Part shown: positions 1-44,688 of the stretch, piece after piece
Layout: each line of letters begins with the position of its first letter
Position numbering within the stretch: the stretch's first letter is position 1
Assembly: GCF_003334315.1 (NCBI RefSeq)
Contig: NZ_QOWR01000008.1
Strand: one strand, 5' to 3'
DNA: 64,000 bases
DNA from: Escherichia coli
Lineage (GTDB): Bacteria > Pseudomonadota > Gammaproteobacteria > Enterobacterales > Enterobacteriaceae
The notes under the pieces: generated by a model
Told to the model about the DNA's origin: nothing
Databases searched by the model: none
Seen by the model: only the letters and a program-made list of their open reading frames with translations
Made by a program: the position numbers and the translations under genes

Positions 1-149
1 GGTTGAGAAGCGGTGTAAGTGAACTGCAGTTGCCATGTTTTACGGCAGTGAGAGCAGAGATAGCGCTGATGTCCGGCGGTGCTTTTGCCGTTACGCACCA
101 CCCCGTCAGTAGCTGAACAGGAGGGACAGCTGATAGAAACAGAAGCCAC
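1..149 (-). CDS. insA: IS1 InsA, N-terminal fragment (5-prime part only, cut by window edge)
   Basis: Minus-strand GTG at 147-149 followed by codons translating [49 protein letters not shown], matching recalled InsA. Confidence 0.8.
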
Positions 150-204
150 TGGAGCACCTCAAAAACACCATCATACACTAAATCAGTAAGTTGGCATCAT
201 CACC
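1..204 (-). mobile_element. IS1 insertion sequence, left end only (truncated by window edge), terminal inverted repeat at 182-204
   Basis: Positions 1-204 read as the reverse complement of the recalled IS1 left end; terminal repeat reads GGTGATGATGCCAACTTACTGAT on the minus strand, one mismatch to the recalled canonical IRL. Confidence 0.85.
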
Positions 205-409
205 GATAAAGAATATGATTTATTACAATGTAATCATTAATTGCTAAGGAATAACCCAGTTGCTATTTAGAATATATATTTATCAGTTTTAGTAATTTAA
301 ATCCCATAATTAATGTGAATATATACAATATTTTTAGCACAACGCTATGCGCACTGTCACCCGCTCAACAGATCACGGTTATCGTTCGTTTTTTATACTG
401 TTCAGGGAT

Positions 410-441
410 AAAAAAAGGCCCCTGTTGAAATTGCAGGGGCC
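410..441 (-). terminator. Rho-independent terminator downstream of cutC
   Basis: GC-rich hairpin ggcccctg/caggggcc at 417-441, followed on the minus strand by a U-run (plus-strand A-run 410-416). Confidence 0.7.
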
Positions 442-488
442 TGGTACGAGCAAGCATCATATTGGGCGACATGATGCAACGGTAAAAA

Positions 489-1244
<756 letters not shown>

Positions 1245-2030: not shown

Positions 2031-3764
2031 GTGAATATTCAGGCTCTTCTCTCAGAAAAAGTCCGTCAGGCCATGATTGCGGCAGGCGCGCCTGCGGATT
2101 GCGAACCGCAGGTTCGTCAGTCAGCAAAAGTTCAGTTCGGCGACTATCAGGCTAACGGCATGATGGCAGTTGCTAAAAAACTGGGTATGGCACCGCGACA
2201 ATTAGCAGAGCAGGTGCTGACTCATCTGGATCTTAACGGTATCGCCAGCAAAGTTGAGATCGCCGGTCCAGGCTTTATCAACATTTTCCTTGATCCGGCA
2301 TTCCTGGCTGAACATGTTCAGCAGGCGCTGGCGTCCGATCGTCTCGGTGTTGCTACGCCAGAAAAACAGACCATTGTGGTTGACTACTCTGCGCCAAACG
2401 TGGCGAAAGAGATGCATGTCGGTCACCTGCGCTCTACCATTATTGGTGACGCAGCAGTGCGTACTCTGGAGTTCCTCGGTCACAAAGTGATTCGCGCAAA
2501 CCACGTCGGCGACTGGGGCACTCAGTTCGGTATGCTGATTGCATGGCTGGAAAAGCAGCAGCAGGAAAACGCCGGTGAAATGGAGCTGGCTGACCTTGAA
2601 GGTTTCTACCGCGATGCGAAAAAGCATTACGATGAAGATGAAGAGTTCGCCGAGCGCGCACGTAACTACGTGGTAAAACTGCAAAGCGGTGACGAATATT
2701 TCCGCGAGATGTGGCGCAAACTGGTCGACATCACCATGACGCAGAACCAGATCACCTACGATCGTCTCAACGTGACGCTGACCCGTGATGACGTGATGGG
2801 CGAAAGCCTCTACAACCCGATGCTGCCAGGAATTGTGGCGGATCTCAAAGCCAAAGGTCTGGCAGTAGAAAGCGAAGGGGCGACCGTCGTATTCCTTGAT
2901 GAGTTTAAAAACAAGGAAGGCGAACCGATGGGCGTGATCATTCAGAAGAAAGATGGCGGCTATCTCTACACCACCACTGATATCGCCTGTGCGAAATATC
3001 GTTATGAAACACTGCATGCCGATCGCGTGCTGTATTACATCGACTCCCGTCAGCATCAACACCTGATGCAGGCATGGGCGATCGTCCGTAAAGCAGGCTA
3101 TGTACCGGAATCCGTACCGCTGGAACACCACATGTTCGGCATGATGCTGGGTAAAGACGGCAAACCGTTCAAAACCCGCGCGGGTGGTACAGTGAAACTG
3201 GCCGATCTGCTGGATGAAGCCCTGGAACGTGCACGCCGTCTGGTGGCAGAAAAGAACCCGGATATGCCAGCCGACGAGCTGGAAAAACTGGCTAACGCGG
3301 TTGGTATTGGTGCGGTGAAATATGCGGATCTCTCCAAAAACCGCACCACGGACTACATCTTCGACTGGGACAACATGCTGGCGTTTGAGGGTAATACCGC
3401 GCCATACATGCAGTATGCATACACGCGTGTATTGTCCGTGTTCCGTAAAGCAGAAATTGACGAAGAGCAACTGGCTGCAGCTCCGGTTATCATCCGTGAA
3501 GATCGTGAAGCGCAACTGGCAGCTCGCTTGCTGCAGTTTGAAGAAACCCTCACCGTGGTTGCCCGTGAAGGTACGCCGCATGTGATGTGTGCTTACCTGT
3601 ACGATCTGGCCGGTCTGTTCTCTGGCTTCTACGAGCACTGCCCGATCCTCAGCGCAGAAAACGAAGAAGTGCGTAACAGCCGTCTGAAACTGGCACAACT
3701 GACGGCGAAGACGCTGAAGCTGGGTCTGGATACGCTGGGTATTGAGACTGTAGAGCGTATGTAA
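2031..3764 (+). CDS. argS: Arginyl-tRNA synthetase
   Basis: 577-aa ORF with GTG start; [14 protein letters not shown]-terminus and class I synthetase HVGH motif. Confidence 0.97.
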
Positions 3765-3940: not shown

Positions 3941-4429
3941 GTGTTTAAATTTCTTGTATTAACATTAGGCATTATCTCTTGCCAGGTTTACGCAGAAGAT
4001 ACGCTTATAGTAAACGACCATGACATTTCAGCCATCAAAGATTGTTGGCAAAAAAATTCAGATGATGATAGTGACATTAACGTGATCAAATCATGCCTGC
4101 GACAAGAATACAATCTCGTCGATGCGCAATTAAATAAAGCCTATGGTGAAGCTTATCGTTATATAGAACAAGTGCCACGCACAGGTGTAAAAAAACCTGA
4201 TACCGAACAACTTAACTTGCTTAAAAAATCACAGCGAGCCTGGCTGGATTTTAGGGACAAAGAATGTGAATTAATCCTTTCAAATGAGGATGTTCAGGAT
4301 TTAAGTGACCCTTATTCTGAATCAGAATGGCTCTCATGTATGATCATACAGACCAATACGCGAACTCGCCAGTTGCAGCTATACCGTAACTCTGAAGATT
4401 TTTATCCAAGCCCTTTGACAAGAGGATAA
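3941..4429 (+). CDS. yecT: YecT, predicted secreted protein of unknown function
   Basis: ORF 3920-4429; GTG at 3941 preferred because AAGGA lies 8 nt upstream; signal-peptide-like N-terminus. Confidence 0.75.
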   Translation: MFKFLVLTLGIISCQVYAEDTLIVNDHDISAIKDCWQKNSDDDSDINVIKSCLRQEYNLVDAQLNKAYGEAYRYIEQVPRTGVKKPDTEQLNLLKKSQRAWLDFRDKECELILSNEDVQDLSDPYSESEWLSCMIIQTNTRTRQLQLYRNSEDFYPSPLTRG

Positions 4430-4548: not shown

Positions 4549-4941
4549 TCAGCGATAATTCACAATCACTTCATTACGTTGTACTTTCAGCGGCGGAATT
4601 AACCGCCCACCGCCAGGCACTTCCCAGATAAAGCGCAACGGTTCTGCTGCCGCTATACCGGAAAAGGCCACGGTGGTTCCGCTCTGCCCCTCTAATTCGA
4701 CACAACGAGATTGCGAACACAAGCGAACCCGCAGTCCTGAAGGTGTCGGGCCGATAAGCTGATAACGCCACGCTACCAGCGTCATCAATCCTGAAGCAGG
4801 TTGTCGCGTAGAAAGAGGCGCAGACGACATCGACTCACCGCGATGATTTAGCGTAATTCCTACACTACTTGCCTGCCACATCCCCTCCCCGGCGGCTTGC
4901 ACCAGCAGCGGAAACAATAATATTGCTAATAAGGTTCTCAT
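4549..4941 (-). CDS. flhE: Flagellar protein FlhE
   Basis: 130-aa ORF matching recalled FlhE; last gene of the flhBAE operon. Confidence 0.95.
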   Translation of the reverse strand: MRTLLAILLFPLLVQAAGEGMWQASSVGITLNHRGESMSSAPLSTRQPASGLMTLVAWRYQLIGPTPSGLRVRLCSQSRCVELEGQSGTTVAFSGIAAAEPLRFIWEVPGGGRLIPPLKVQRNEVIVNYR

Positions 4942-7019
4942 TATTTGCCGCCAATTGTCGCCGTCATGCGGATATGTCGGTTATCAGACAGTTCCAGATT
5001 CGACAGGACCACTAACTGCGGCAAGCTGCGGCGCAGGAAGCGAGACAATAATGGTCGCAGCGCGTGGTTCACCAACAATACTGGCGGCGCACCCAGCATC
5101 TCCTGACGGGATAGCGCTTCCTGAGTTTGCGCCAGTAAACGATCCGCCAGCCCTGGCTCCAGTCCTCCCCCGCCCTGCAGCGCCTGTAGTAACAAACGTT
5201 CCAGCGGTGTATCGAGGCCAATAACATGGACTTCATCTTTGCCAGGAAACCACTGCTGGGTAATCGCCCGTCCCAACGCCACGCGCACGACGGCGGTTAA
5301 TTCATGTGGATCGCTTTGGATGGGCGCATGTTCCGCCAGCGTTTCGAGAATGGTGCGCATATCGCGAATCGGTACTTTTTCATCGAGGAGATTTTGCAGC
5401 ACTTTATGCAGTGTGGTGAGCGTGACGACGCCAGGAACGAGATCTTCCGTCAGCTTTGGCATCTCCTGGGCGACGCGATCCAACAGCTGTTGCGCCTCCT
5501 GACGACCAAACAGCTCTGCGGCATGCTGGCTAATGAGGTGGTTAAGATGCGTTGCTACCACCGTGCTGGCCTCAACCACTGTGTACCCCTGAATCTGCGC
5601 CTGTTCTTTTAGCGCACTTTCAATCCAGATAGCATTCAGGCCAAATGCCGGATCGACGGTCGCCTCACCAGGTAACGTCCCGGCAGCGATTCCAGGGTTA
5701 ATCGCCAGCCAGCGCCCCGGATAAGCATCACCACTGCCAATCTCCACGCCTTTCATCAAAATGCGATAGCGGGCAGGTTGCAGATCCATATTGTCGCGAA
5801 TGTGCACCACTGGCGGCAGAAATCCCATCTCCTGGGCAAATTTCTTGCGGATACTGCGTATACGGCCCAACAACTCACCATCCTGCTGGAAATCGACCAT
5901 CGGGATCAGTCGATAACCCACTTCCATTCCCAGAGAATCTTCCAGTTGTACATCGTTCCACGTCGCTTCGACAACGGTATTATTCTCTGCCATTTTTACC
6001 GGTTTGGGTTCGGCAGGCGCTTTTTGTTCGCGTCCGCGTATCCACCAGGCCAGCCCGAGCAATCCGGCAGTGAACAGCAAAAATACCAGGTTCGGCATTC
6101 CAGGCACCAGGCCGAGTAAACCGAGCACGGCGGCGCTTAACAACATAACGCTTGGGTTACTGAAAAGCTGATTCACCATCTGCTCGCCAACATCCTGATC
6201 GGTGCTGACACGCGTAACGATGACCCCCGCGGCGGTAGAAATCACCAGCGCCGGAATTTGTGCCACCAGACCGTCGCCAATGGTCAATAGCGTATAACTT
6301 TCCGCCGCGTGTCCCATGCTCATGCCATGTTGCAGCACGCCGACCAGCAACCCGCCGACAACGTTAATGACCATGATGAGGATCCCGGCGATGGCATCGC
6401 CGCGAACAAACTTACTTGCCCCGTCCATTGAGCCGTAAAAATCGGCTTCCTGAGTCACTTCGGAGCGGCGTTTTTTCGCCTCATCTTCACCAATCAATCC
6501 GGCGTTAAGGTCGGCGTCAATCGCCATCTGCTTACCCGGCATACCATCGAGAACAAAGCGCGCACCCACTTCTGCGATACGCCCGGCACCTTTGGTAATG
6601 ACCATAAAGTTGATGATCACGAGAATGACAAACACCACGATACCGATAGCGAAATTGCCACCAACGAGGAAGTGACCGAACGCTTCGACCACCTTCCCTG
6701 CCGCCGCCGCGCCGGTATGCCCTTCCATTAAAATGATACGGGTTGAAGCCACGTTAAGTGCCAGACGCAACAGCGTGGTAAACAACAGAATGGTCGGAAA
6801 CGCAGCAAACTCAAGCGTGCGCTGGGTAAACATCGCCACCAGCAACACCATGATCGACAAGGCAATATTGAAGGTAAACAACAGGTCGAGTATGAATGCG
6901 GGCAGTGGCAGCACCATCATCGACAAGATCAACAGGATCAAAATCGGTCCGGCAAGGATCTGCCATTGTGTCGATTTCAGGTTTGCGGGCAGGCGCAGCA
7001 TCGCGGCCAGATTACTCAT
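4941..7019 (-). CDS. flhA: Flagellar type III export apparatus protein FlhA
   Basis: ORF 4941-7094; start moved to MSNLAAMLRLPANLK (692 aa) matching recalled FlhA. Confidence 0.95.
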   Translation of the reverse strand: MSNLAAMLRLPANLKSTQWQILAGPILILLILSMMVLPLPAFILDLLFTFNIALSIMVLLVAMFTQRTLEFAAFPTILLFTTLLRLALNVASTRIILMEGHTGAAAAGKVVEAFGHFLVGGNFAIGIVVFVILVIINFMVITKGAGRIAEVGARFVLDGMPGKQMAIDADLNAGLIGEDEAKKRRSEVTQEADFYGSMDGASKFVRGDAIAGILIMVINVVGGLLVGVLQHGMSMGHAAESYTLLTIGDGLVAQIPALVISTAAGVIVTRVSTDQDVGEQMVNQLFSNPSVMLLSAAVLGLLGLVPGMPNLVFLLFTAGLLGLAWWIRGREQKAPAEPKPVKMAENNTVVEATWNDVQLEDSLGMEVGYRLIPMVDFQQDGELLGRIRSIRKKFAQEMGFLPPVVHIRDNMDLQPARYRILMKGVEIGSGDAYPGRWLAINPGIAAGTLPGEATVDPAFGLNAIWIESALKEQAQIQGYTVVEASTVVATHLNHLISQHAAELFGRQEAQQLLDRVAQEMPKLTEDLVPGVVTLTTLHKVLQNLLDEKVPIRDMRTILETLAEHAPIQSDPHELTAVVRVALGRAITQQWFPGKDEVHVIGLDTPLERLLLQALQGGGGLEPGLADRLLAQTQEALSRQEMLGAPPVLLVNHALRPLLSRFLRRSLPQLVVLSNLELSDNRHIRMTATIGGK

Positions 7020-8160
7020 GGGTCGGTTTCTCGTTAATAAAATCCAGGGCTTCCGGCACCGGAAGATGAGTAGGTTGTACAGGGCGCTGTCCACCAGCCA
7101 GACGCCAGCGTTTCAGTTGCCAGACCCAGGCCAGCACTTCCGCCACCGCGGCGTACAGTTGACCCGGGATTTGTTGACCAATCTCCGCATGTCGATACAG
7201 CGCTCGCGCCAGCGGCGGCGCTTCAAGCGTCGGGACGTTATTTTCAGCGCCAATTTCACGAATGCGCAGCGCGACCAGCCCTGCACCTTTAGCGACCACT
7301 TTCGGTGCGCTCATTTTGTTTTCGTCATACTGCAACGCTACCGAATAGTGGGTCGGGTTATTGACAATGACATCCGCTTTCGGCACATCGGCCATCATCC
7401 GACGCCGTGCGGCAGCTCGCTGCATCTGACGGATCCGTCCTTTAACATGGGGGTCGCCTTCGCTTTGTTTGAACTCATCACGAATATCCTGCCGCGACAT
7501 TCGCAGCTTTTTCAGGTGGTTGAAGATTTGGAAAAAGACGTCAAATCCCACCATTGGAATGACACCAAGCACCACCAGCAGTGCGCATAGCCCTACCAAA
7601 TCCATCGCATTACCCATGGCGGTAATCGGAGACTCGGCCATTAAGCGCATCATCTGCGGCCAGTGATGCCAGAGAAAAAACCCCGTCACGCTGCCAACCA
7701 GGATGGTTTTCAAAATTGCTTTAAGCAACTCCGCGCCAGTCTGAGCCGAGAACATCCGTTTAATGCCCGGTAGCGGGTTGAGTTTGGAAAACTTCGGCTG
7801 CAAGGATTTGCCGCTAAATACCAGCCCTCCCAGCATGACCGGAGAAATGAGCGCCACCAGTACCACGCCGCTAATCAGTGGCAGCAGCGCCAGCATGGCT
7901 TCTCTGATCAGCAGAATAATCTGCCCGAGGATCAGATTCGGGTCTTTGATAATACTGTGATCAAAATGCAGCCCAGCGGAGAGCATGCCCGACAATCGAC
8001 GGGCCAGCGACACACCGCCAAACCAGATAACACTAACGCCCACCAGCAAAATCAGCAGTGAGGTCAGTTCACGGGAACGCGGGATTTGCCCCTCTTCCCG
8101 CGCTTTTTCTAGTCGGTGAGGTGTGGGGGCTTCTGTTTTGTCGTCGCTCTCGTCAGACAC
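7012..8160 (-). CDS. flhB: Flagellar export apparatus and substrate-specificity switch protein FlhB
   Basis: 382-aa ORF; conserved N-terminus and NPTH autocleavage motif present. Confidence 0.95.
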   Translation of the reverse strand: MSDESDDKTEAPTPHRLEKAREEGQIPRSRELTSLLILLVGVSVIWFGGVSLARRLSGMLSAGLHFDHSIIKDPNLILGQIILLIREAMLALLPLISGVVLVALISPVMLGGLVFSGKSLQPKFSKLNPLPGIKRMFSAQTGAELLKAILKTILVGSVTGFFLWHHWPQMMRLMAESPITAMGNAMDLVGLCALLVVLGVIPMVGFDVFFQIFNHLKKLRMSRQDIRDEFKQSEGDPHVKGRIRQMQRAAARRRMMADVPKADVIVNNPTHYSVALQYDENKMSAPKVVAKGAGLVALRIREIGAENNVPTLEAPPLARALYRHAEIGQQIPGQLYAAVAEVLAWVWQLKRWRLAGGQRPVQPTHLPVPEALDFINEKPTHE

Positions 8161-8288
8161 GTCGCCAATCCTGGAAAGAGTATTAAGCGTGAATGATGCC
8201 AGAGCGCAAAGCGTTCAATGGTTTGAGTAAGGGGCAAAACAGGCGGGATTTAGGGCTTTTGCTGCCACACATCAAGCATAGTGTGCGT

Positions 8289-8352
8289 TTGTCGGATGCG
8301 GCGTCATCGCCTTATCAGACCGCCTGATATGACGTGGTCACGCCACATCAGG
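8289..8352. repeat. REP/BIME-like palindromic units in the flhB-cheZ intergenic region
   Basis: gtcggatgcggcgtcatcgccttatcagaccgcctgatatgacgtggtcacgccacatcaggc resembles the REP consensus. Confidence 0.5.
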
Positions 8353-8361
8353 CAATACAAA

Positions 8362-9006
8362 TCAAAATCCAAGACTATCCAACAAATCGTCCACCTGATC
8401 CTGACTGGCTACCACACCGGCTTTGCTGGTATCGACCTGAGGTCCATTAAGCAAACTCTGGTTTTCACGTTTTGGACGCGACTCCTGTTCCGGGATGTTT
8501 TCCAACAGCACCATCAGCAACTGGCGTTCGATCTCCTGAATGACATCCATCATCCGCTTAATGACCTGCCCGGTGAGATCCTGAAAATCCTGCTCCATCA
8601 TGATTTCCAGCAGTTGCGCGTTAGTAAAGCTGGTATGCGCGGGTACATCTGCCAGAAATTGTCGTGTATCTGTTACCAGTTCACGGGCGTCGGCAAGGTC
8701 AATCGGATCGGCAAACCAGTCATCCCAACGTTGGGTTAACGCTTTTGCTGATTTCTCCATTTGATCCTGATGCGGTTGTGACGCCTCAACACTGTTCAGC
8801 GCCCGCTCCGCAGCCTGGGCGGTCATCTGCACAACATAGTACAAACGATCGCGCGCATCGGGGATGGCTTCCGCCGCTTCGGCAATGGCCTGATCCAGCC
8901 CCAGTTCCCGCAAACTGTCGCGCAGCATACGCGTCAGGCTGCCGATGCGCGCAATGATATCGCCAGCTGAATGCTCGTCAGCAGGTTTGATTGATGGTTG
9001 CATCAT
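8362..9006 (-). CDS. cheZ: CheY-P phosphatase CheZ
   Basis: ORF 8362-9036; start moved to [12 protein letters not shown] (214 aa) matching recalled CheZ. Confidence 0.93.
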
Positions 9007-9016
9007 AGTCGCATCC

Positions 9017-10470
<1,454 letters not shown>

Positions 10471-10472
10471 CG

Positions 10473-11333
10473 TTAATCCTTACTTAGCGCATACACCGTC
10501 TGACCACGCAGCGTGAAGCGGCGCTCAAGGTGGCTAAAGTTTTCAGAGTGACCCGCAAACAGCAATCCGTCGGGTTTAAGGAGCGGAACAAAGCGGCGCA
10601 AAATCTCCTGCTGGGTAGTTTGATCGAAGTAGATCATGACGTTACGACAGAAGATCGCATCAAACGGCCCCGGCACGGTGTACTGTTTCGCCAGTAGATT
10701 CAGCGGGGCAAAATCAACATAGTTCGCCAGCTCCTGACGCACGCGTACCAGCCCTTCATGCGGCCCCGTCCCTCGCATGAAATACCGTTGCAGTTGCTGC
10801 GGCGTCAGGTTTTTCAACTCTTCATGGCGATAGATACCGCTTCTGGCTTTTTCCAGCACTTCGGTGTCGATATCACTGGCAAACACTTTCCAGCGTCCGG
10901 GCGCGGTGCCCAATGTGTCAGCCAGCGTCATCGCAATGCTGTACGGCTCTTCGCCGGTCGAAGCCGCCGCGCTCCATACGCGATACTCGCCAGAACGGCG
11001 ACGTGCGTGATCCGCGAGCAGAGGGAAATGATGTGCCTCACGGAAAAATGCCGTCAGATTCGTGGTCAGCGAATTGATAAACGCCTGCCACTCACCGCTG
11101 TGCTGATTAGATTCCAGCAAGTTCAGATAATGACCGAAATCCGTCAGTCCCAGCGAACGCAAACGACGAACCAGTCGGTTGTAAACCATGTCGCGTTTAT
11201 GGTCAGCCAGAACGATCCCGGCTCGTTGATAGATCAATTGACTTATCCGCCGAAAATGCGCGTCGGAAAGCGCCAGGCGCTCGGTCATCTGTAACAATAA
11301 AGACGTTTGCCCACAGGGCAGAGATGAAGTCAT
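10473..11333 (-). CDS. cheR: Chemotaxis methyltransferase CheR
   Basis: 286-aa ORF matching recalled CheR. Confidence 0.95.
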
Positions 11334-11351
11334 AGCGCCTTCTCAATCACT

Positions 11352-12953
11352 TCAGGATACCACTGGCGCAATTTGTAACTGCACCGACTCATGTCGTGCT
11401 ACTTCATGTTCTTCAAGGGTAAATACCGCTACACGCGACGAAAGATGGTCGGCCTGATTCGCCAGTTGTTCCGTTGCCACCGCCGCTTCTTCTACCAGCG
11501 AGGCGTTCTGCTGAGTCACCTGATCCATCTGGCTGACAGCCTGTGCAACCTGCTCAATCCCCCGCTGTTGTTCTTCCGACGCAGAGGCAATTTCTCCCAT
11601 AATGTCGTTCACGCGGGTCACCGAACTGACAATATCGATCATGGTCGCGGCGGCGTTATTCACCAGTTTCGAACCCTGCTGGACACGATTGACTGACTCT
11701 TCGATCAGCCCTTTGATCTCTTTTGCTGCCTGCGCGCTACGGCTGGCAAGATTGCGCACTTCACCTGCCACTACCGCAAAACCACGCCCCTGCTCTCCGG
11801 CGCGAGCCGCTTCCACTGCCGCATTCAGGGCCAGAATATTGGTCTGGAAAGCAATTCCGTCGATAACGCTGATAATGTCGCCAATTTTTTGCGAGCTGGT
11901 GGCGATCTCCTGCATGGTGTGAGTCATGGTACTGACCTGAACACCGCCCGCCTGCGCCGTTGTCGCGGCATTTTTTGCCAGTTCCGACGCCTGTCGTGCG
12001 TTATCGGCGTTTTGCCCTACCGTGGCGGTTAATTGCTCCATACTGGCGGCCGTTTGTGCCAGCGATGCCGCCTGCTGTTCGGTACGACTTGAGAGATCGT
12101 TATTGCCTGCGACAATCTCCGCGATACCAATGTGCATCTCCTGGCTTCCCTTACGCACATCACTTACCGTCCCACGCAAAGCCTGCTGCATGGTCTTCAG
12201 ACTGGCAAAAATGGCGGTGATCTCATTACGACCATATACCGCAATCGGACGCGCCAGATTACCCGCAGCAATGCTGTCAAAATGGCTACCGATAATGGCC
12301 AGTGGTTGAACAATCATCTTGCGCGTCCACCACAGCGCACTGCTGATGTAGATCGCCGCAACAATAATCATGCTGATAAACACCAGTGCCGAAATCTGAT
12401 AGTTACGCTGGCTTTGCGAACTGGCGGCTTCCAGCACATGGTTGATCTCCAGCTGCCAGGCCTCAAAGTTAACGTCAAACGCATTCTGTGATCCCTGCAC
12501 CGGCGCAGTGAGGAAATCCGAAAGTTGATTACTTTCAAGCCAGGTCGCCTGATGTTCGAGATCGTTGTGCCAGCGGGCAAAACTTTTCTCCGTCTCTTTT
12601 TGCAATCCCCTGACGTGCTCGTTGCCCGCAGTCATCGCCATAAAACTTTTAAACAGCGTGGTGGATTGCGTCAGACTGGCGCGCGCCGTCGTCATCAACG
12701 TTTTAATGTCATCCGCCGGATAGCTAAGTGCCGTCAGAGTGCCCGCTTTGTTCAGCGCGGTACTGGCCTGTAACATTACCGCCCGAGTTTGCGCTAATGC
12801 CGCACGTTGCTGATTGCTCTGCTCGACCTGATTCAGTCGTTGCAAATCGTCGCGAAATGCCCAAAAAGACATGCCGTTACTGCCAATCTGCAAGATCCCG
12901 CAGAGAATCAAAATTAAAAACAGCGTGGTCGAAATTCGAATACGATTAAACAT
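11352..12953 (-). CDS. tap: Methyl-accepting chemotaxis protein IV (dipeptide/pyrimidine sensor) Tap
   Basis: ORF 11352-12956; 533-aa product from MFNRIRIST; MCP signalling domain. Confidence 0.93.
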   Translation of the reverse strand: MFNRIRISTTLFLILILCGILQIGSNGMSFWAFRDDLQRLNQVEQSNQQRAALAQTRAVMLQASTALNKAGTLTALSYPADDIKTLMTTARASLTQSTTLFKSFMAMTAGNEHVRGLQKETEKSFARWHNDLEHQATWLESNQLSDFLTAPVQGSQNAFDVNFEAWQLEINHVLEAASSQSQRNYQISALVFISMIIVAAIYISSALWWTRKMIVQPLAIIGSHFDSIAAGNLARPIAVYGRNEITAIFASLKTMQQALRGTVSDVRKGSQEMHIGIAEIVAGNNDLSSRTEQQAASLAQTAASMEQLTATVGQNADNARQASELAKNAATTAQAGGVQVSTMTHTMQEIATSSQKIGDIISVIDGIAFQTNILALNAAVEAARAGEQGRGFAVVAGEVRNLASRSAQAAKEIKGLIEESVNRVQQGSKLVNNAAATMIDIVSSVTRVNDIMGEIASASEEQQRGIEQVAQAVSQMDQVTQQNASLVEEAAVATEQLANQADHLSSRVAVFTLEEHEVARHESVQLQIAPVVS

Positions 12954-12998
12954 CAACGCTCCCCATCAGGCGGCAATGACCGCGTTAGTAAATACTCG

Positions 12999-14660
12999 TC
13001 AAAATGTTTCCCAGTTTGGATCTTGTTCAGCAATTCGCAGTCGTGGCTGTGCCGGTGGTTGCTCACTGGCAGGACGGGATGGTGTTTGCGGTTTATTGGT
13101 GAGTGGGCTGGCTGCCAGACGGAACGCGGAAACCGCTTGCGTTAAACGACTCGCCTGTTCTTCCAGCGCAGCGGCGGCGGCAGCTGATTCCTGCACCAGC
13201 GATGCGTTCTGTTGCGTGACGCGATCCATTTCCGAAACCGCCAATGCGACTTGATCGATGCCACGGCTCTGTTCATCCGATGCCGATGCAATCTCGCCCA
13301 TAATGTCAGTCACGCGAGTGACAGCATTGACGATATTGTTCATTGTTTCCCCGGCGCTTTCGACCAGCACCGAACCGGTATCAACGCGTGAGACGGAGTC
13401 TTCAATGAGGGCTTTGATCTCTTTTGCCGCCTGGGCGCTGCGACTGGCAAGATTACGCACTTCACCCGCCACCACGGCAAAACCACGGCCCTGTTCACCC
13501 GCACGCGCGGCTTCAACCGCGGCATTCAGCGCGAGGATATTAGTCTGGAAGGCAATACCGTCGATAACGCTGATAATGTCGGCAATTTTCTTCGAACTAT
13601 CGGCGATCTCATGCATCGTTTTCACTACGCCATCCACCACTTTGCCGCCGTGCTGGGCGGTGTCGGAGGCACTTTGCGCCAGTTGCGAGGCCTGGCGGGC
13701 GTTATCGGCGTTTTGCTTCACTGTCGCGGTGAGCTGCTCCATGCTGGCGGCAGTTTCTTCCAGCGCGGATGCCTGCTGTTCAGTACGGGAGGAAAGATCG
13801 GTGTTGCCCGCCGCAATTTCACGGGTACCGGCATAGATGGCATCTGAACCTTCGCGGACATGAGTGACGGTGTCAGTCAAAGAGCGTTGCATATGTGAAA
13901 CGCTCTGCGCCAGGTCGCCCATTTCACTGCGCCCGTCAATGGTCAGGGTATTCGCCAGGTTACCACCGGCGATTTCGCGAATGTGAGCAATAATTTTTGC
14001 CAGCGGAGTAAGCAACATACGGCGAATGCCGTACCACGCCACCAGCAGAATCAATACCACCACCAGCGCGATAACCGCCAGTTGCCACTGGGCAAATCGG
14101 TAATCATCTGCGTTGTCAGTGACGATATCGCGATACAGTTTTTCACTGCTGAGGGCGTACTGAGCAAACGCTTCGCCCATTGCATTTTGCATTCCCTGGG
14201 TTGGCTGAGCGAAATAAGCTCCAGTATTGCCATAATCTAGATAATCAATCAGTTCAGTTAACGCTGTGTAATAGTTTTTATATTTTTCATCAATATTACG
14301 ACTGGTAGCGACCATTTCAGGTAACGGTGCCATGCTTTTGAATTTTTTATAATGCGTCGCTGCCTGCGCCAATGTTTTCCTGGCGCTATCGAGCAATTCA
14401 ACTTTGGCGTTACTTTGTTGATTGGAGGAATCCATCATCATCCGTACCGCTGAACGACTCAGGTTAATGCGCGTTTGCAGCATTAAATCCCAGGTTGACG
14501 TCAGCTCGCCCTGCTGTTCCCGTAATTGATTGGAAACCACAAAGCTCTTCTGGCTATGGTGAAGGGAAGAAAAAAACAGACTGCCGGAAATAAGCTGTAA
14601 CAGTGCGAATACCCCCAGCACCATTACCAACAGCGTGACTACGCGGATACGGTTAATCAT
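12999..14660 (-). CDS. tar: Methyl-accepting chemotaxis protein II (aspartate/maltose sensor) Tar
   Basis: ORF 12999-14681; start moved to [11 protein letters not shown] (553 aa); C-terminal NWETF pentapeptide present. Confidence 0.95.
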
Positions 14661-14691
14661 AAGGCACCTTCCTGAAAACAAGTTGATCTCG

Positions 14692-14718
14692 TTATCGGCA
14701 AGGAGGGGGGAAACTTTA
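14692..14718 (-). promoter_or_regulatory. Sigma-28 (FliA) class 3 promoter of the tar-tap-cheRBYZ operon
   Basis: Minus strand reads TAAAGTTT, 11-nt spacer, GCCGATAA: exact match to sigma-28 consensus, about 30 nt upstream of tar. Confidence 0.85.
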
Positions 14719-14748
14719 TTGCTGATGCCACCCGCCGCGAAATTGAAA

Positions 14749-14776
14749 TAAAAAACCCGATGCGCAGATCATCGGG
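14749..14776 (-). terminator. Rho-independent terminator downstream of cheW (end of motAB-cheAW operon)
   Basis: Hairpin cccgatg/catcggg (14756-14776) followed on the minus strand by a U-run. Confidence 0.7.
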
Positions 14777-14804
14777 TTCATTTCAATTGAGGAAATCGGG
14801 AGAA

Positions 14805-15308
14805 TTACGCCACTTCTGACGCCGCGCTATCTAACAGCGCCATCTCTTCGCTGTTCAGCAGTTTTTCGATGTTCACCAGAATCAACATCCGGTCGCCCAG
14901 TGCGCCCAGTCCAGTGAGATATTCTGTTGAAAGCGTCACGGCAAATTCCGGTGCCGGACGAATTTGCTCCGCCGTCAATGAAAGCACGTCTGAGACGCCG
15001 TCAACCACGATGCCGACCACCCGCTGTCCGAGATTCAGGACGATAACTACCGTGTTGTCGTTATAGTCCACATCCACCTGGCTGAACTTAATTCGTAAGT
15101 CAACAATCGGCACAATAACGCCGCGCAGATTCGTGACGCCTTTGATAAACGCTGGCGTGTTCGCAATCCGTGTTACCTGATCGTAGCCACGGATCTCCTG
15201 CACTTTCAGGATATCAATACCGTACTCTTCATCACCAAGGGTAAATACCAGAAATTCCTGGCCTGACGGCTCGCTGGCCAGCTTTGTTACATTCGTCATA
15301 CCGGTCAT
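14805..15308 (-). CDS. cheW: Chemotaxis coupling protein CheW
   Basis: 167-aa ORF matching recalled CheW. Confidence 0.97.
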
Positions 15309-15328
15309 ATTGTTACCTTTTTACTCAT

Positions 15329-18220
<2,892 letters not shown>

Positions 18221-18224
<4 letters not shown>

Positions 18225-19108
18225 GCTTCCTCGGTTGTCGTCTGTTGTTGCGGATTTTTCACCGCACGCACATGCTCTTCCAGTTCAATAAACGACGGGC
18301 GTTCGCTGGAATAGAGCGTTTTGCGACCAAACTCAACGGCGATAGGCGGTGCGTAACCGTTCAGATTAGAAAGCAGAGTGACTTTGACGCACTGCATCAT
18401 TTTGCTGGTTTCGGCGCTTTTCTGACGTAAAACAGTCGCTAATGGGGAAATAAATCCGTAAGCCAATAAAATGCCGAGGAAAGTCCCCACCATCGCATGT
18501 GCGATAAGCGCACCCAGCTCGGCGGCAGGACGATCGGCTGAACCTAACGCGTGAACGACCCCCATTACAGCCGCAACAATACCAAACGCCGGAAGTGAGT
18601 CCCCGACCAGCGCCAGACTGTTCGCCGGGACTTCTGCCTCGCTTTCGTGCGTCTCAATCTCTTCATCCATCAGGGCTTCGATTTCGAAGGTGTTCATGTG
18701 ACCGCTGATAATCAGGCGCAGATAATCGACGATAAAATCAAGCATGACGCTATCCGCGAGGATGCGTGGGTAGCTGGCGAAGATCTCGCTCTCACGGGGA
18801 TTTTCAATATCACGTTCCAGCGAAAACATCCCCATCTGCCGCGATTTCGCCATCAACCGATAAAGCAGAGCCAGCAGATCCATATACATTGCTTTGGTGT
18901 ATTTGGAGCGACGAAACAGCAACGGCAGCGCCTTCAGCGTGCCTTTAATCGCTTTGCCATTATTGCCGACGATAAACGACCCAATCCCTGCACCGGCAAT
19001 AATCACCAGTTCAGCGGGTTGATAGAGTGCTCCAAGGCTTCCACCGGTCATCAAATAACCGCCGAAAACTGTACCGAGAACAACCAGGTAACCTAATAAG
19101 ATAAGCAC
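18221..19108 (-). CDS. motA: Flagellar motor stator protein MotA
   Basis: 295-aa ORF matching recalled MotA. Confidence 0.96.
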
Positions 19109-19176
19109 GACATCATCCTTCCACTGTTGACCATGACAGGATGTTCAGTCGTCAGGCGTTAACGCGCGATTGGGGC

Positions 19177-19209
19177 AAAAAAAAGCAGCGGTACGTCGTT
19201 ACCGCTGCT
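19177..19209 (-). terminator. Rho-independent terminator of the flhDC operon
   Basis: Hairpin agcagcggta/taccgctgct (19184-19209) followed on the minus strand by an 8-nt U-run. Confidence 0.75.
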
Positions 19210-19234
19210 GGAATGTTGCGCCTCACCGTATCAG

Positions 19235-19813
19235 TTAAACAGCCTGTACTCTCTGTTCATCCAGCAGTTGTGGGATAATATCGGCAGGATTCTGGGAAAG
19301 TTTACGTCTTTTTACTGCCCGGGATGGCGGTTGACATAAGCTGCAGGCAAAGCTGCCAACAGGCTGGTGAGCGTGGGTAATAAAATTGCCGCCGCAGCAG
19401 TTGCAGCTGGAAAGTTGCAGTAATCCACTTTCAACAAACCGCACCAATGTCCAGGCACGGGTTAATGCCAGCAGTGGTCCTTCTTCTGCTTGTGGGCACT
19501 GTTCAAGGTATAAACGGTAGGCTTTGATCACCGCATCGACGCCATTACACAAACCGGTTTTCAGTAAAAACTGCCATGCATTACAGAACATCGAAGCATG
19601 AACGTTTTGTTCCCAGGTCATAAACCAGTCGGTTGAGAATGGCAGCATGCCTTTCGGCGGTGGGCTTCCGCGCAGTTCTTTATAAAGTTTTATCAGGCGT
19701 CCGCGACTTAACTGTGTTTCGCTTTCCAGCATCTGCAAACGAGCGCCCAGGGTGATCAATTCCATTGCCAGCTGAATATCCCGCGCTTCCTGAACAATGC
19801 TTTTTTCACTCAT
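19235..19813 (-). CDS. flhC: Flagellar master regulator subunit FlhC
   Basis: 192-aa ORF with zinc-binding cysteines; matches recalled FlhC. Confidence 0.96.
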
Positions 19814-19815
19814 GA

Positions 19816-20166
19816 TCAGGCCCTTTTCTTGCGCAGCGCTTCTTCAGGCTGATTAACATCATTCAGCAAGCGTGTTGAGAGCATGATGCCGGTATGAATT
19901 TGCTGGAGATCGTCAACGCGGGAATCTTGCGTCAACTGAGTAATCGTCTGGTGGCTGTCAAAACGGAAGTGACAAACCAGTTGATTGGTTTCTGCCAGCT
20001 TAACCATTTGCGGAAGAGTCAGTGCCGCTAACGTTGTCGCCATTTCTTCATTTATGCCGAGACGAAACATAGCGGACGCTTTGTCCTGAACAATCAAACG
20101 CTGTGCAAGTAGTAAATATGACAAGTTGATGTCATAAATGTGTTTCAGCAACTCGGAGGTATGCAT
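19816..20166 (-). CDS. flhD: Flagellar master regulator subunit FlhD
   Basis: ORF 19816-20175; ATG at 20166 gives the 116-aa [17 protein letters not shown] form. Confidence 0.92.
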
Positions 20167-20427
20167 TATTCCCACCCAGAATAACCAACTTTATTTTTAT
20201 GCGGTTTCACCGCACCCCGTGATGTCGCCGGGAAGCCCCGGTAAAAAATAATTAGCATTAGAATAGTTGCGATAAGCTGCAATAAGCAGAACCACCTTTT
20301 TGGTTTAATATGTCCTTACAAATAGAAATGGGTCTTTACACTTATCTAAGATTTTTCCTAAATCGACGCAACTGTACTCGTCACTACACGCACATACAAC
20401 GGAGGGGGGCTGCGATTTTCAATAATG

Positions 20428-20443
20428 TGTGATGCAGATCACA
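20428..20443. promoter_or_regulatory. CRP binding site in the flhDC class 1 promoter region
   Basis: tgtgatgcagatcaca fits the TGTGA-N6-TCACA CRP consensus at the expected distance upstream of flhD. Confidence 0.7.
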
Positions 20444-20945
20444 CAAAACACTCAATTACTTAACATAAATGTATAAGTCATACTTTTGTTTTGGGTGTAT
20501 TTCAATCTGTTAAAAAGTTTTTCGCTACGCTAGCAAGCAAAAATGAAACAGGAATAATCGAAATGGGATGTTGCGCACAGTCAAAATAACTCACCGTAAA
20601 TAATCATCTGCTATAAATAATCACTTTCATTCAATACCAGATAAGCTATTTTTAAACAGACACTTACCGCACAACAAACTAATTAAATACAAAGAAAGGC
20701 AACAATCAACTTAATGTTGATGAAATGTTTTACATATATTAACCACTTGTTTAATGCGGAGAATCAGTACACTATTTTCTTATAATTACATTTGAAATTA
20801 TATGATCACCGGGAGTGATTGATTAATTGTCTTTACTAATAATCAGACTAATATTTACCTGTTTGACCGAGTTGGGATTGCGTCGTTTCTCCATTAGGAG
20901 TAAAGCTTTAATGTCACCTGAAGTTCACAGAATAAGGAACAGGTT

Positions 20946-21374
20946 ATGAGCTATAGCAATATTCTTGTCGCTGTTGCGGTTACACCGGAAAGTCAGCAAC
21001 TGCTGGCAAAAGCGGTATCTATCGCCAGGCCAGTAAAGGGACACATCAGTTTAATTACTCTCGCTTCCGACCCGGAAATGTACAATCAATTAGCTGCGCC
21101 GATGCTTGAAGATTTACGCAGCGTGATGCAGGAAGAAACGCAAAGCTTTCTTGATAAGTTAATTCAGGATGCGGGGTATCCCGTTGACAAGACGTTTATT
21201 GCCTACGGTGAGTTAAGCGAACATATTCTGGAAGTATGTCACAAGCATCATTTCGATTTGGTGATTTGCGGTAATCACAATCACAGTTTCTTTTCGCGAG
21301 CATCCTGCTCGGCGAAAAGAGTTATTGCCTCAAGTGAGGTCGATGTGCTGTTAGTTCCACTTACGGGAGATTAA
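20946..21374 (+). CDS. uspC: Universal stress protein C
   Basis: 142-aa ORF matching recalled UspC (YecG). Confidence 0.93.
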   Translation: MSYSNILVAVAVTPESQQLLAKAVSIARPVKGHISLITLASDPEMYNQLAAPMLEDLRSVMQEETQSFLDKLIQDAGYPVDKTFIAYGELSEHILEVCHKHHFDLVICGNHNHSFFSRASCSAKRVIASSEVDVLLVPLTGD

Positions 21375-43301: not shown

Positions 43302-44612
43302 TTAACCCTGCAGCAGAGACAGAACCTGCTGCGGTACCTGGTTGGCTTTTGCCAGTACGGAGTTACCGGCCTGCTGGATAATCTGCGCTTTCGACATGTT
43401 GGACACTTCGGTCGCATAGTCGGCGTCCTGAATACGGGACTGCGCTTCAGACAGGTTGGTAGTGGTGTTGTTCAGGTTGGTGACTGCGGAATCCAGACGG
43501 TTTTGCACCGCACCGAGGGAGGAGCGGAAAGTATCAACCTGTGCAATCGCTTTGTCTAAAAGTGCCAGTGGATCAGCAGAAGAAGCCCCTGAGAACTGTG
43601 CAGTCGGTTTTGCTGTTGATAATTCAACAACAACTTTATTATCTGTTGCTTTTGCCGCAGTATTATCATCAAGTGCCTTTGAAACCGTTGTAGCGTAGTT
43701 TTTACCTTGGAATGTTACATATCCCGCAGCCGAGCCGTCAGAGTCAGCGGCAACTTTAATCAGTTGATCTTTCTGAGTAGCCGCAGTCGTTAGTCCATTA
43801 TCGGTGTCTGTGTATTCGACATCGGCTTTATTCAACGTGACTTTGCCGTCTGTATGATTAATCGACGCGGAGTAGAAATCATTGCCGGATTGAACGACGA
43901 ACTGTGATGTAGCAGCCCCTTTCGCATCCAGAGTGTTGTGTAACGTCAGGCTAGAAACATCGACTGTTTTACCTGTCGCAGTAGTCAGATCTTTCGCAAC
44001 AGCAGTGAAATCAACACCAACAGGTTTTGCCCCGGCGGCACCGGTAATTTGAGTAATGGAATCACTAACGTTAAGTGACTGACCCGAAACGGAGAAACCG
44101 TTCAGTCCTAATGTAGAAGAGTCAATCTTCTGCAAATCAATGCTAATAGTCTGCCCATCATTCGCGCCAACCTGAATCTTCATCGAACCATCTTTCGCCA
44201 GCACATTCACGCCGTTGAACTGGGTCTGACCGGAAACGCGATCAATTTCATCCAGACGGGATTTGATTTCGTCCTGGATTGAAGACAGGTCAGAATCAGA
44301 GTTAGTCCCGGTCGTCGCCTGAACGGTCAACTCACGCACACGCTGCAAGTTGTTGTTGATTTCAGACAGCGCGCCTTCAGTGGTCTGCGCCAGAGAGATA
44401 CCGTCGTTGGCGTTACGTGCGGCCTGAGTCAGACCTTTGATGTTAGAGGTGAAGCGGTTAGCAATCGCCTGGCCCGCAGCGTCATCTTTAGCGCTGTTAA
44501 TGCGCAGACCAGAAGAGAGGCGCTCGATAGAAGTCGACAGCGCAGACTGGTTTTTGTTGATGTTGTTCTGAGTGATCAGCGAGAGGCTGTTGGTATTAAT
44601 GACTTGTGCCAT
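43302..44612 (-). CDS. fliC: Flagellin FliC (H antigen), 436 aa, non-K-12 central domain
   Basis: ORF 43302-44633; start moved to MAQVINTNSLSLITQNN; N and C termini conserved, central region divergent and shorter than the 498-aa K-12 protein. Confidence 0.95.
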   Translation of the reverse strand: MAQVINTNSLSLITQNNINKNQSALSTSIERLSSGLRINSAKDDAAGQAIANRFTSNIKGLTQAARNANDGISLAQTTEGALSEINNNLQRVRELTVQATTGTNSDSDLSSIQDEIKSRLDEIDRVSGQTQFNGVNVLAKDGSMKIQVGANDGQTISIDLQKIDSSTLGLNGFSVSGQSLNVSDSITQITGAAGAKPVGVDFTAVAKDLTTATGKTVDVSSLTLHNTLDAKGAATSQFVVQSGNDFYSASINHTDGKVTLNKADVEYTDTDNGLTTAATQKDQLIKVAADSDGSAAGYVTFQGKNYATTVSKALDDNTAAKATDNKVVVELSTAKPTAQFSGASSADPLALLDKAIAQVDTFRSSLGAVQNRLDSAVTNLNNTTTNLSEAQSRIQDADYATEVSNMSKAQIIQQAGNSVLAKANQVPQQVLSLLQG

Positions 44613-44688
44613 GATTTCTTTTCCTGTTTTCAAGTCTACGGTTTAAGTATTGGGCTTCCACCCTTCGGCTTCGTCGCCGTCAACCCTG

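Follow-up and report, generated by a model that had tools for sequence, protein, structure and literature searches.

The 64,000-nt stretch of Escherichia coli DNA analyzed here (the window) begins inside a copy of IS1. Its first 204 positions are the reverse complement of an ordinary IS1 left end, comprising the 23-bp left inverted repeat (IRL) and the first 49 codons of insA, and they abut the AT-rich spacer between cutC and torY. The exact junction is new to the collections searched but lies among known junctions, and IS1 at this locus is recurrent, not unusual. The element, the mechanism, and the locus are already known, and the copy represents routine strain-to-strain IS1 variation. On the far side, hidden by the window edge, the element is probably followed by an intact torYZ operon.

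Identity of the IS1 end and position of the junction

Window positions 1 to 204 (minus strand) hold the IRL end of an IS1 element that is cut by the window edge. They are identical at 203 of 204 positions to the final 204 bases of a complete IS1A (768 bp) in strain DAM, an identity that rules out a chance match. The sole difference from the DAM copy is at window position 197, which is IRL position 8, where C is replaced by A; the same single mismatch separates the window from what we take to be the canonical IS1 left end. If the IS1 is complete, the remaining ~564 bp would lie beyond window base 1. No second IS1 sequence was found within the 64-kb window.

The IRL itself (GGTGATGATGCCAACTTACTGAT; 182 to 204, minus strand) has A, not C, at position 8. 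In 13 of 17 compared loci, the IRL of the IS1A copy is identical to it at 22 of 23 positions. To look for the A allele, we used a 34-nt query that stops at the terminus of the repeat and for which megablast seeding is possible only on A-allele copies. Among the 5,426 complete E. coli genomes, 339 gave matches, which amount to 2,076 places in total and to as many as 37 in a single genome; the carriers include ATCC 8739, ETEC H10407, and HS30-1. The A at IRL position 8 is a natural, circulating IS1 allele, minor in frequency and spread to many sites. An origin of the mismatch in a sequencing error or in decay of this copy was rejected on these counts.

The 5′ part of insA occupies positions 1 to 149 (minus strand), with a GTG start at 149 to 147 followed through 49 complete codons and 2 further bases. 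The GTG at window position 149 corresponds to IS1 position 56, about 55 bp inside the IRL end, and the 49 codons from 149 to 3 on the minus strand are free of stops. The 49-aa peptide matches the NCBIfam model for the IS1/IS1595 N-terminal zinc-binding domain (NF050000) with 42.8 bits, against a curated cutoff of 28. It also matches model positions 1 to 40 of the IS1 family transposase model (NF033558), a partial match that scores under the whole-protein cutoff because only 49 aa are available. The gene is directed toward torY and away from cutC. The window copy therefore shares with E. coli IS1A (IS1 family) the insA start, the N-terminal zinc-finger peptide, and the 23-bp IRL bar one base, as well as a junction in AT-rich DNA at exactly the end of the repeat; it differs in the A at IRL position 8, and 204 of its 768 bp are visible. 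The preliminary description had recognized an IS1 left end in reverse complement, with one mismatch in the terminal repeat and the first 49 insA codons, and each of these points is borne out.

The K-12 locus (L001; record NZ_CP032667.1) was used as the coordinate reference. In window orientation, the K-12 gene order is torZ(−), torY(−), a 387-bp spacer, cutC(−), yecM(−), and argS(+), and the 387 bp from the cutC stop codon to the torY ATG are without an IS element. Alignment of the flank to K-12, which had been proposed as a check, found the window identical to K-12 from base 205 on, beginning at L001 position 4002, so that the junction corresponds to K-12 4001|4002. It lies 284 bp downstream from the stop codon of cutC and 103 bp upstream from the ATG of torY. 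The retained part of the spacer, from IS1 to the MicL/cutC terminator, spans positions 205 to 409 and is identical to K-12. These results agree with the preliminary description in that K-12 has no IS1 here and that torY and the torYZ operon occupy this position.

IS1 transposase makes a 9-bp staggered cut in its target and prefers AT-rich DNA of the kind bound by H-NS. The cutC-torY spacer has a GC content of 34%, and window positions 205 to 488 have 34.5%, versus 50.8% for the whole window. The IS1 sequence stops precisely at the outermost IRL base, beside this AT-rich target, which is a strong argument that the junction itself is real. From the junction mapping and the comparable loci described below, the first 9 bp of the flank (GATAAAGAA; 205 to 213) are predicted to recur beyond IS1 if the element arrived by simple transposition.

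Strain specificity and other IS1 copies at the locus

A megablast search against the 5,426 complete E. coli genomes found none that holds window positions 1 to 600 as a single exact piece. An exact 38-nt junction pattern, which carried N at the variable repeat base, had 0 matches in JGI metagenome contigs and 0 in GTDB species representatives. A look-up of public assemblies by exact CutC protein returned only the usual cutC-387 bp-torY arrangement, and a search of the literature on IS1 and torY or cutC returned no report of this insertion. Genomes that are ~100% identical to the window over positions 205 to 25000 and 39001 to 64000, including cM2a, 2018-11-3CC, AHM9C68I, and HS30-1, have no such insertion; HS30-1 is ~100% identical to the window across 24.8 kb. 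Since the junction is missing from near-identical genomes, the insertion is younger than their divergence and thus recent and strain specific. The preliminary description had proposed strain specificity and named two findings that would speak against it; positions 1 to 204 do match IS1, and the same IS1 was not seen at this site in the reference strains. Its uniqueness within the searched collections makes the junction usable as a strain marker. The closest matches suggest that the host is a phylogroup-A-like E. coli. Its close relatives are rich in IS1: the genomes of DAM, ANT, 2017.17.03CC, and HS30-1 each have 39 to 40 matching places.

Other IS1 copies in or near the cutC-torY spacer were found in 77 genomes in either orientation, 20 of them with the orientation of the window and 57 with the opposite one; the set of 20 comprises genomes in which a nearby IS1 brings coverage of the 600-nt query to 80% or more. 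At least 14 other IS1 junction positions fall within the 387-bp spacer. For 22 loci, both IS1 junctions were mapped on K-12 L001, and all 22 contain a full 768-bp IS1 with torY/torZ on the far side. Simple insertions into the spacer in window orientation lie at K-12 3937, 3995, 4006, 4021, 4027, 4054, 4082, and 4135 (the last in two strains), with 8- to 9-bp duplications and intact torY. Simple insertions inside torY, again in window orientation, lie at K-12 3197, 3669, 3715, 3722, and 3812 and have 9-bp duplications except at 3669 (L012), where the flanks overlap by 11 bp. A third type consists of IS1 with an adjacent deletion of 252 to 649 bp that removes the 5′ end of torY, with cutC-side junctions at K-12 3900, 3970, 4007, and 4129; the deletions measure 252 bp in L002, 380 bp in L011, 527 bp in L010, and 649 bp in L017. 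In opposite orientation, IS1 lies in the spacer at K-12 3974 and 4185 and inside torY at 3568 and 3830.

The spacer copies in Res13-Lact-PEB20-37-A (O9:H10), GF60, DAM/ANT, and the DA33133 clade are the same element in the same 387-bp spacer as in the window. The nearest simple insertions in the same orientation are at K-12 3995 and 4006, which are 7 and 4 bp off the window site at 4002, and both have 8- to 9-bp duplications and intact torY. None of these copies, however, has the window junction at GATAAAGAA, and at this locus none has the IRL allele of the window.

The largest group is formed by the opposite-orientation IS1 at K-12 3974, which is common to at least 26 genomes and is flanked by the duplication ATTAGGCAC. 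It lies 28 bp from the window site and is represented by NZ_CP029574.1 (L030; IS1 at locus positions 1937 to 2704) and at least 25 others, including an O89m:H10 strain. Two unrelated-looking genomes, NZ_CP063467.1 (L010) and NZ_CP126343.1 (L017), each have IS1 at locus positions 1437 to 2204 and a common torY-side junction at K-12 3479, and their cutC-side junctions differ (4007 versus 4129). This suggests that L010 and L017 are nested IS1-adjacent deletions derived from one ancestral insertion.

The pattern of recurrent insertion fits known IS1 behavior, with an AT-rich target, an IS1-rich lineage, and a location beside a dispensable operon. The repeated arrival of IS1 in a 34% GC, H-NS-flagged spacer and in torY bears on the choice of targets by IS elements and on the dispensability of torYZ.

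The side beyond the window

Only one IS1 end is visible, and the preliminary description rightly held that the outcome on the far side is not determinable from the window. The other genomes provide a comparison. Thirteen same-orientation copies, each from its own record, have their cutC-side junction within the spacer; nine of these are simple insertions with 8- to 9-bp duplications and intact torY and four are deletions, a 9:4 ratio that reflects few events that are not strictly independent. We consider it probable that the window holds a simple insertion with the duplication GATAAAGAA and intact torYZ. A complete 768-bp IS1 would then have transposed recently into the AT-rich cutC-torY spacer, 103 bp upstream of the torY start, with insA and insB reading toward torY. 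The 9-bp duplication GATAAAGAA would flank the element, and torYZ would, we infer, continue intact beyond it. In window orientation, the far junction is expected to read ...CCTGAAACAATCGATAAAGAA|GGTAATGACTCC..., with the torY upstream region as the far flank.

A somewhat unlikely course is an insertion in or near torY followed by a deletion from the IRL end that took the 5′ end of torY and its promoter. In that case, base 205 would represent one end of the deletion, torY would have been cut short, and a duplication of the target would be absent. This is the type of 4 of the 13 comparable loci, and the cutC-side junction of one of them, L010 (K-12 4007), is only 5 bp off that of the window; the pattern in L010 and L017 is the one that nested deletions starting from a single ancestral copy would produce. 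Simple insertions nevertheless outnumber deletions about two to one in this sample, and the closest genomes have an intact, IS-free torY region, so that two recent steps would be needed.

We judge it very unlikely that the IS1 end marks the boundary of a large IS1-mediated rearrangement (an inversion, large deletion, or translocation) with DNA other than torYZ on the far side. Such an event would be in keeping with the single visible IS1 end, with a lineage that has 39 to 40 matching IS1 places per genome in relatives, and with the IS1-bounded flhA-to-flhD deletion located about 5 kb away in DAM and ANT. Against it, torY/torZ lie beyond IS1 in 22 of 22 loci, a boundary of a large inversion or deletion was found at 0 of the 22 loci compared, and the other 63.8 kb of the window run uninterrupted from cutC to rcsA with the gene order of near-identical complete genomes.

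An assembly artefact, with IS1 misjoined to the cutC flank or the contig starting inside a collapsed repeat, is scarcely credible: draft contigs often start or end in IS copies, as this window does by starting inside IS1, but a join on the last base of the inverted repeat is not expected of a misjoin, the adjoining AT-rich target demonstrably takes IS1 in other genomes, and a contig merely ending in a repeat would leave the IS1-target junction real.

cutC, MicL, and torYZ expression

On the visible side, cutC, its terminator, and MicL are untouched by IS1. The MicL sRNA is complete and embedded in the 3′ end of cutC (410 to 717, minus strand; Rfam RF02654, 381.9 bits, 308/308 model positions). 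Its end is the cutC terminator hairpin (about 416 to 442) with the adjoining U-run, and the MicL/cutC 3′ end has been described (PMC4102768, 2014). The edge of IS1 lies 205 nt past the 3′ end of this terminator. Both CutC and YecM give full-length equivalog matches.

The expression of torYZ is described in a passage of PMC1805755, which cites Gon et al. 2000, as constant and low, and a modest response to oxidative and copper stress has been reported (PMC12096835). Shimada et al. 2014 (PMC3946193) list a predicted, SELEX-based torYZ promoter, GTGACA-18-TAAAAA, and flag the spacer for H-NS. This SELEX-based prediction was the only published torYZ promoter proposal found in our search, which returned no experimental transcription start. 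We located the predicted promoter at K-12 L001 4157 to 4128, which is window 360 to 331 on the minus strand, on the cutC side of IS1. A simple insertion would separate torY by about 777 bp from all sequence upstream of window base 205, including this site. If the predicted promoter at 360 to 331 is real, IS1 is within the leader and a polar effect on torYZ should follow.

The K-12 spacer was also scanned for promoters. A stricter sigma-70-like scan found nothing on the torY strand and a single site on the wrong strand, and a relaxed hexamer scan gave four matches on the torY strand, all weak at 8/12. Two of these four, TTAATT-17-TACAAT and TATGCA-16-TATATT, fall in the stretch from the insertion point to torY and would remain joined to the gene. 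At the modelled junction between the IS1 right inverted repeat (IRR) and the target, the relaxed scan found no new hybrid promoter. With weak 8/12 sites only and no hybrid promoter, a confident claim of either activation or inactivation of torYZ was rejected, and the direction of any IS1 effect on torYZ is a matter of conjecture. The most likely outcome is neutral or a further loss of expression, since basal expression is low and natural IS1 alleles that disrupt torY are numerous. The expression of torYZ in this strain may thus differ from that in K-12.

IS1 and IS5 insertions upstream of bglGFB and flhDC alter the expression of operons that are H-NS silenced or weakly expressed. By analogy, the spacer could be a selected IS1 target, in which insertions relieve H-NS silencing or switch on a cryptic torYZ N-oxide/S-oxide reductase, and the window copy could be another activating allele. 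The insertions, repeated and independent, occur in both orientations and at no fewer than 15 junction positions in 387 bp, and the setting is alike in that IS elements enter AT-rich, H-NS-flagged regulatory DNA upstream of an operon with poor expression. The present case differs from bglGFB and flhDC in having no predicted hybrid promoter and no orientation or position bias of the selection type; none that points to selection was seen among the compared loci. We regard the selected-target reading as very doubtful. A bias in favor of the orientation that reads through into torY was likewise rejected, as both orientations are seen (20 versus 57 genomes).

Farther along the window are a few minor features of the flagellar region. 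In DAM (L003; NZ_CM129523.1, positions 13006 to 14204) and also in ANT, a second IS1 truncates flhA and is directly followed by uspC. These two strains have an IS1-bounded deletion of the flhA-to-flhD flagellar and chemotaxis block, and the window keeps this block (ORFs at 4941 to 20166). The flhD-uspC regulatory spacer (20167 to 20946) has no IS element in the window or in K-12 NZ_CP032667.1; the MG1655 reference presumably carries an IS1 in this spacer. The flagellin ORF (43302 to 44633, minus strand) encodes at most 443 aa, and the same allele is present in near-identical genomes. It is shorter than K-12 FliC, which we take to be 498 aa, and therefore points to a non-K-12 H type.
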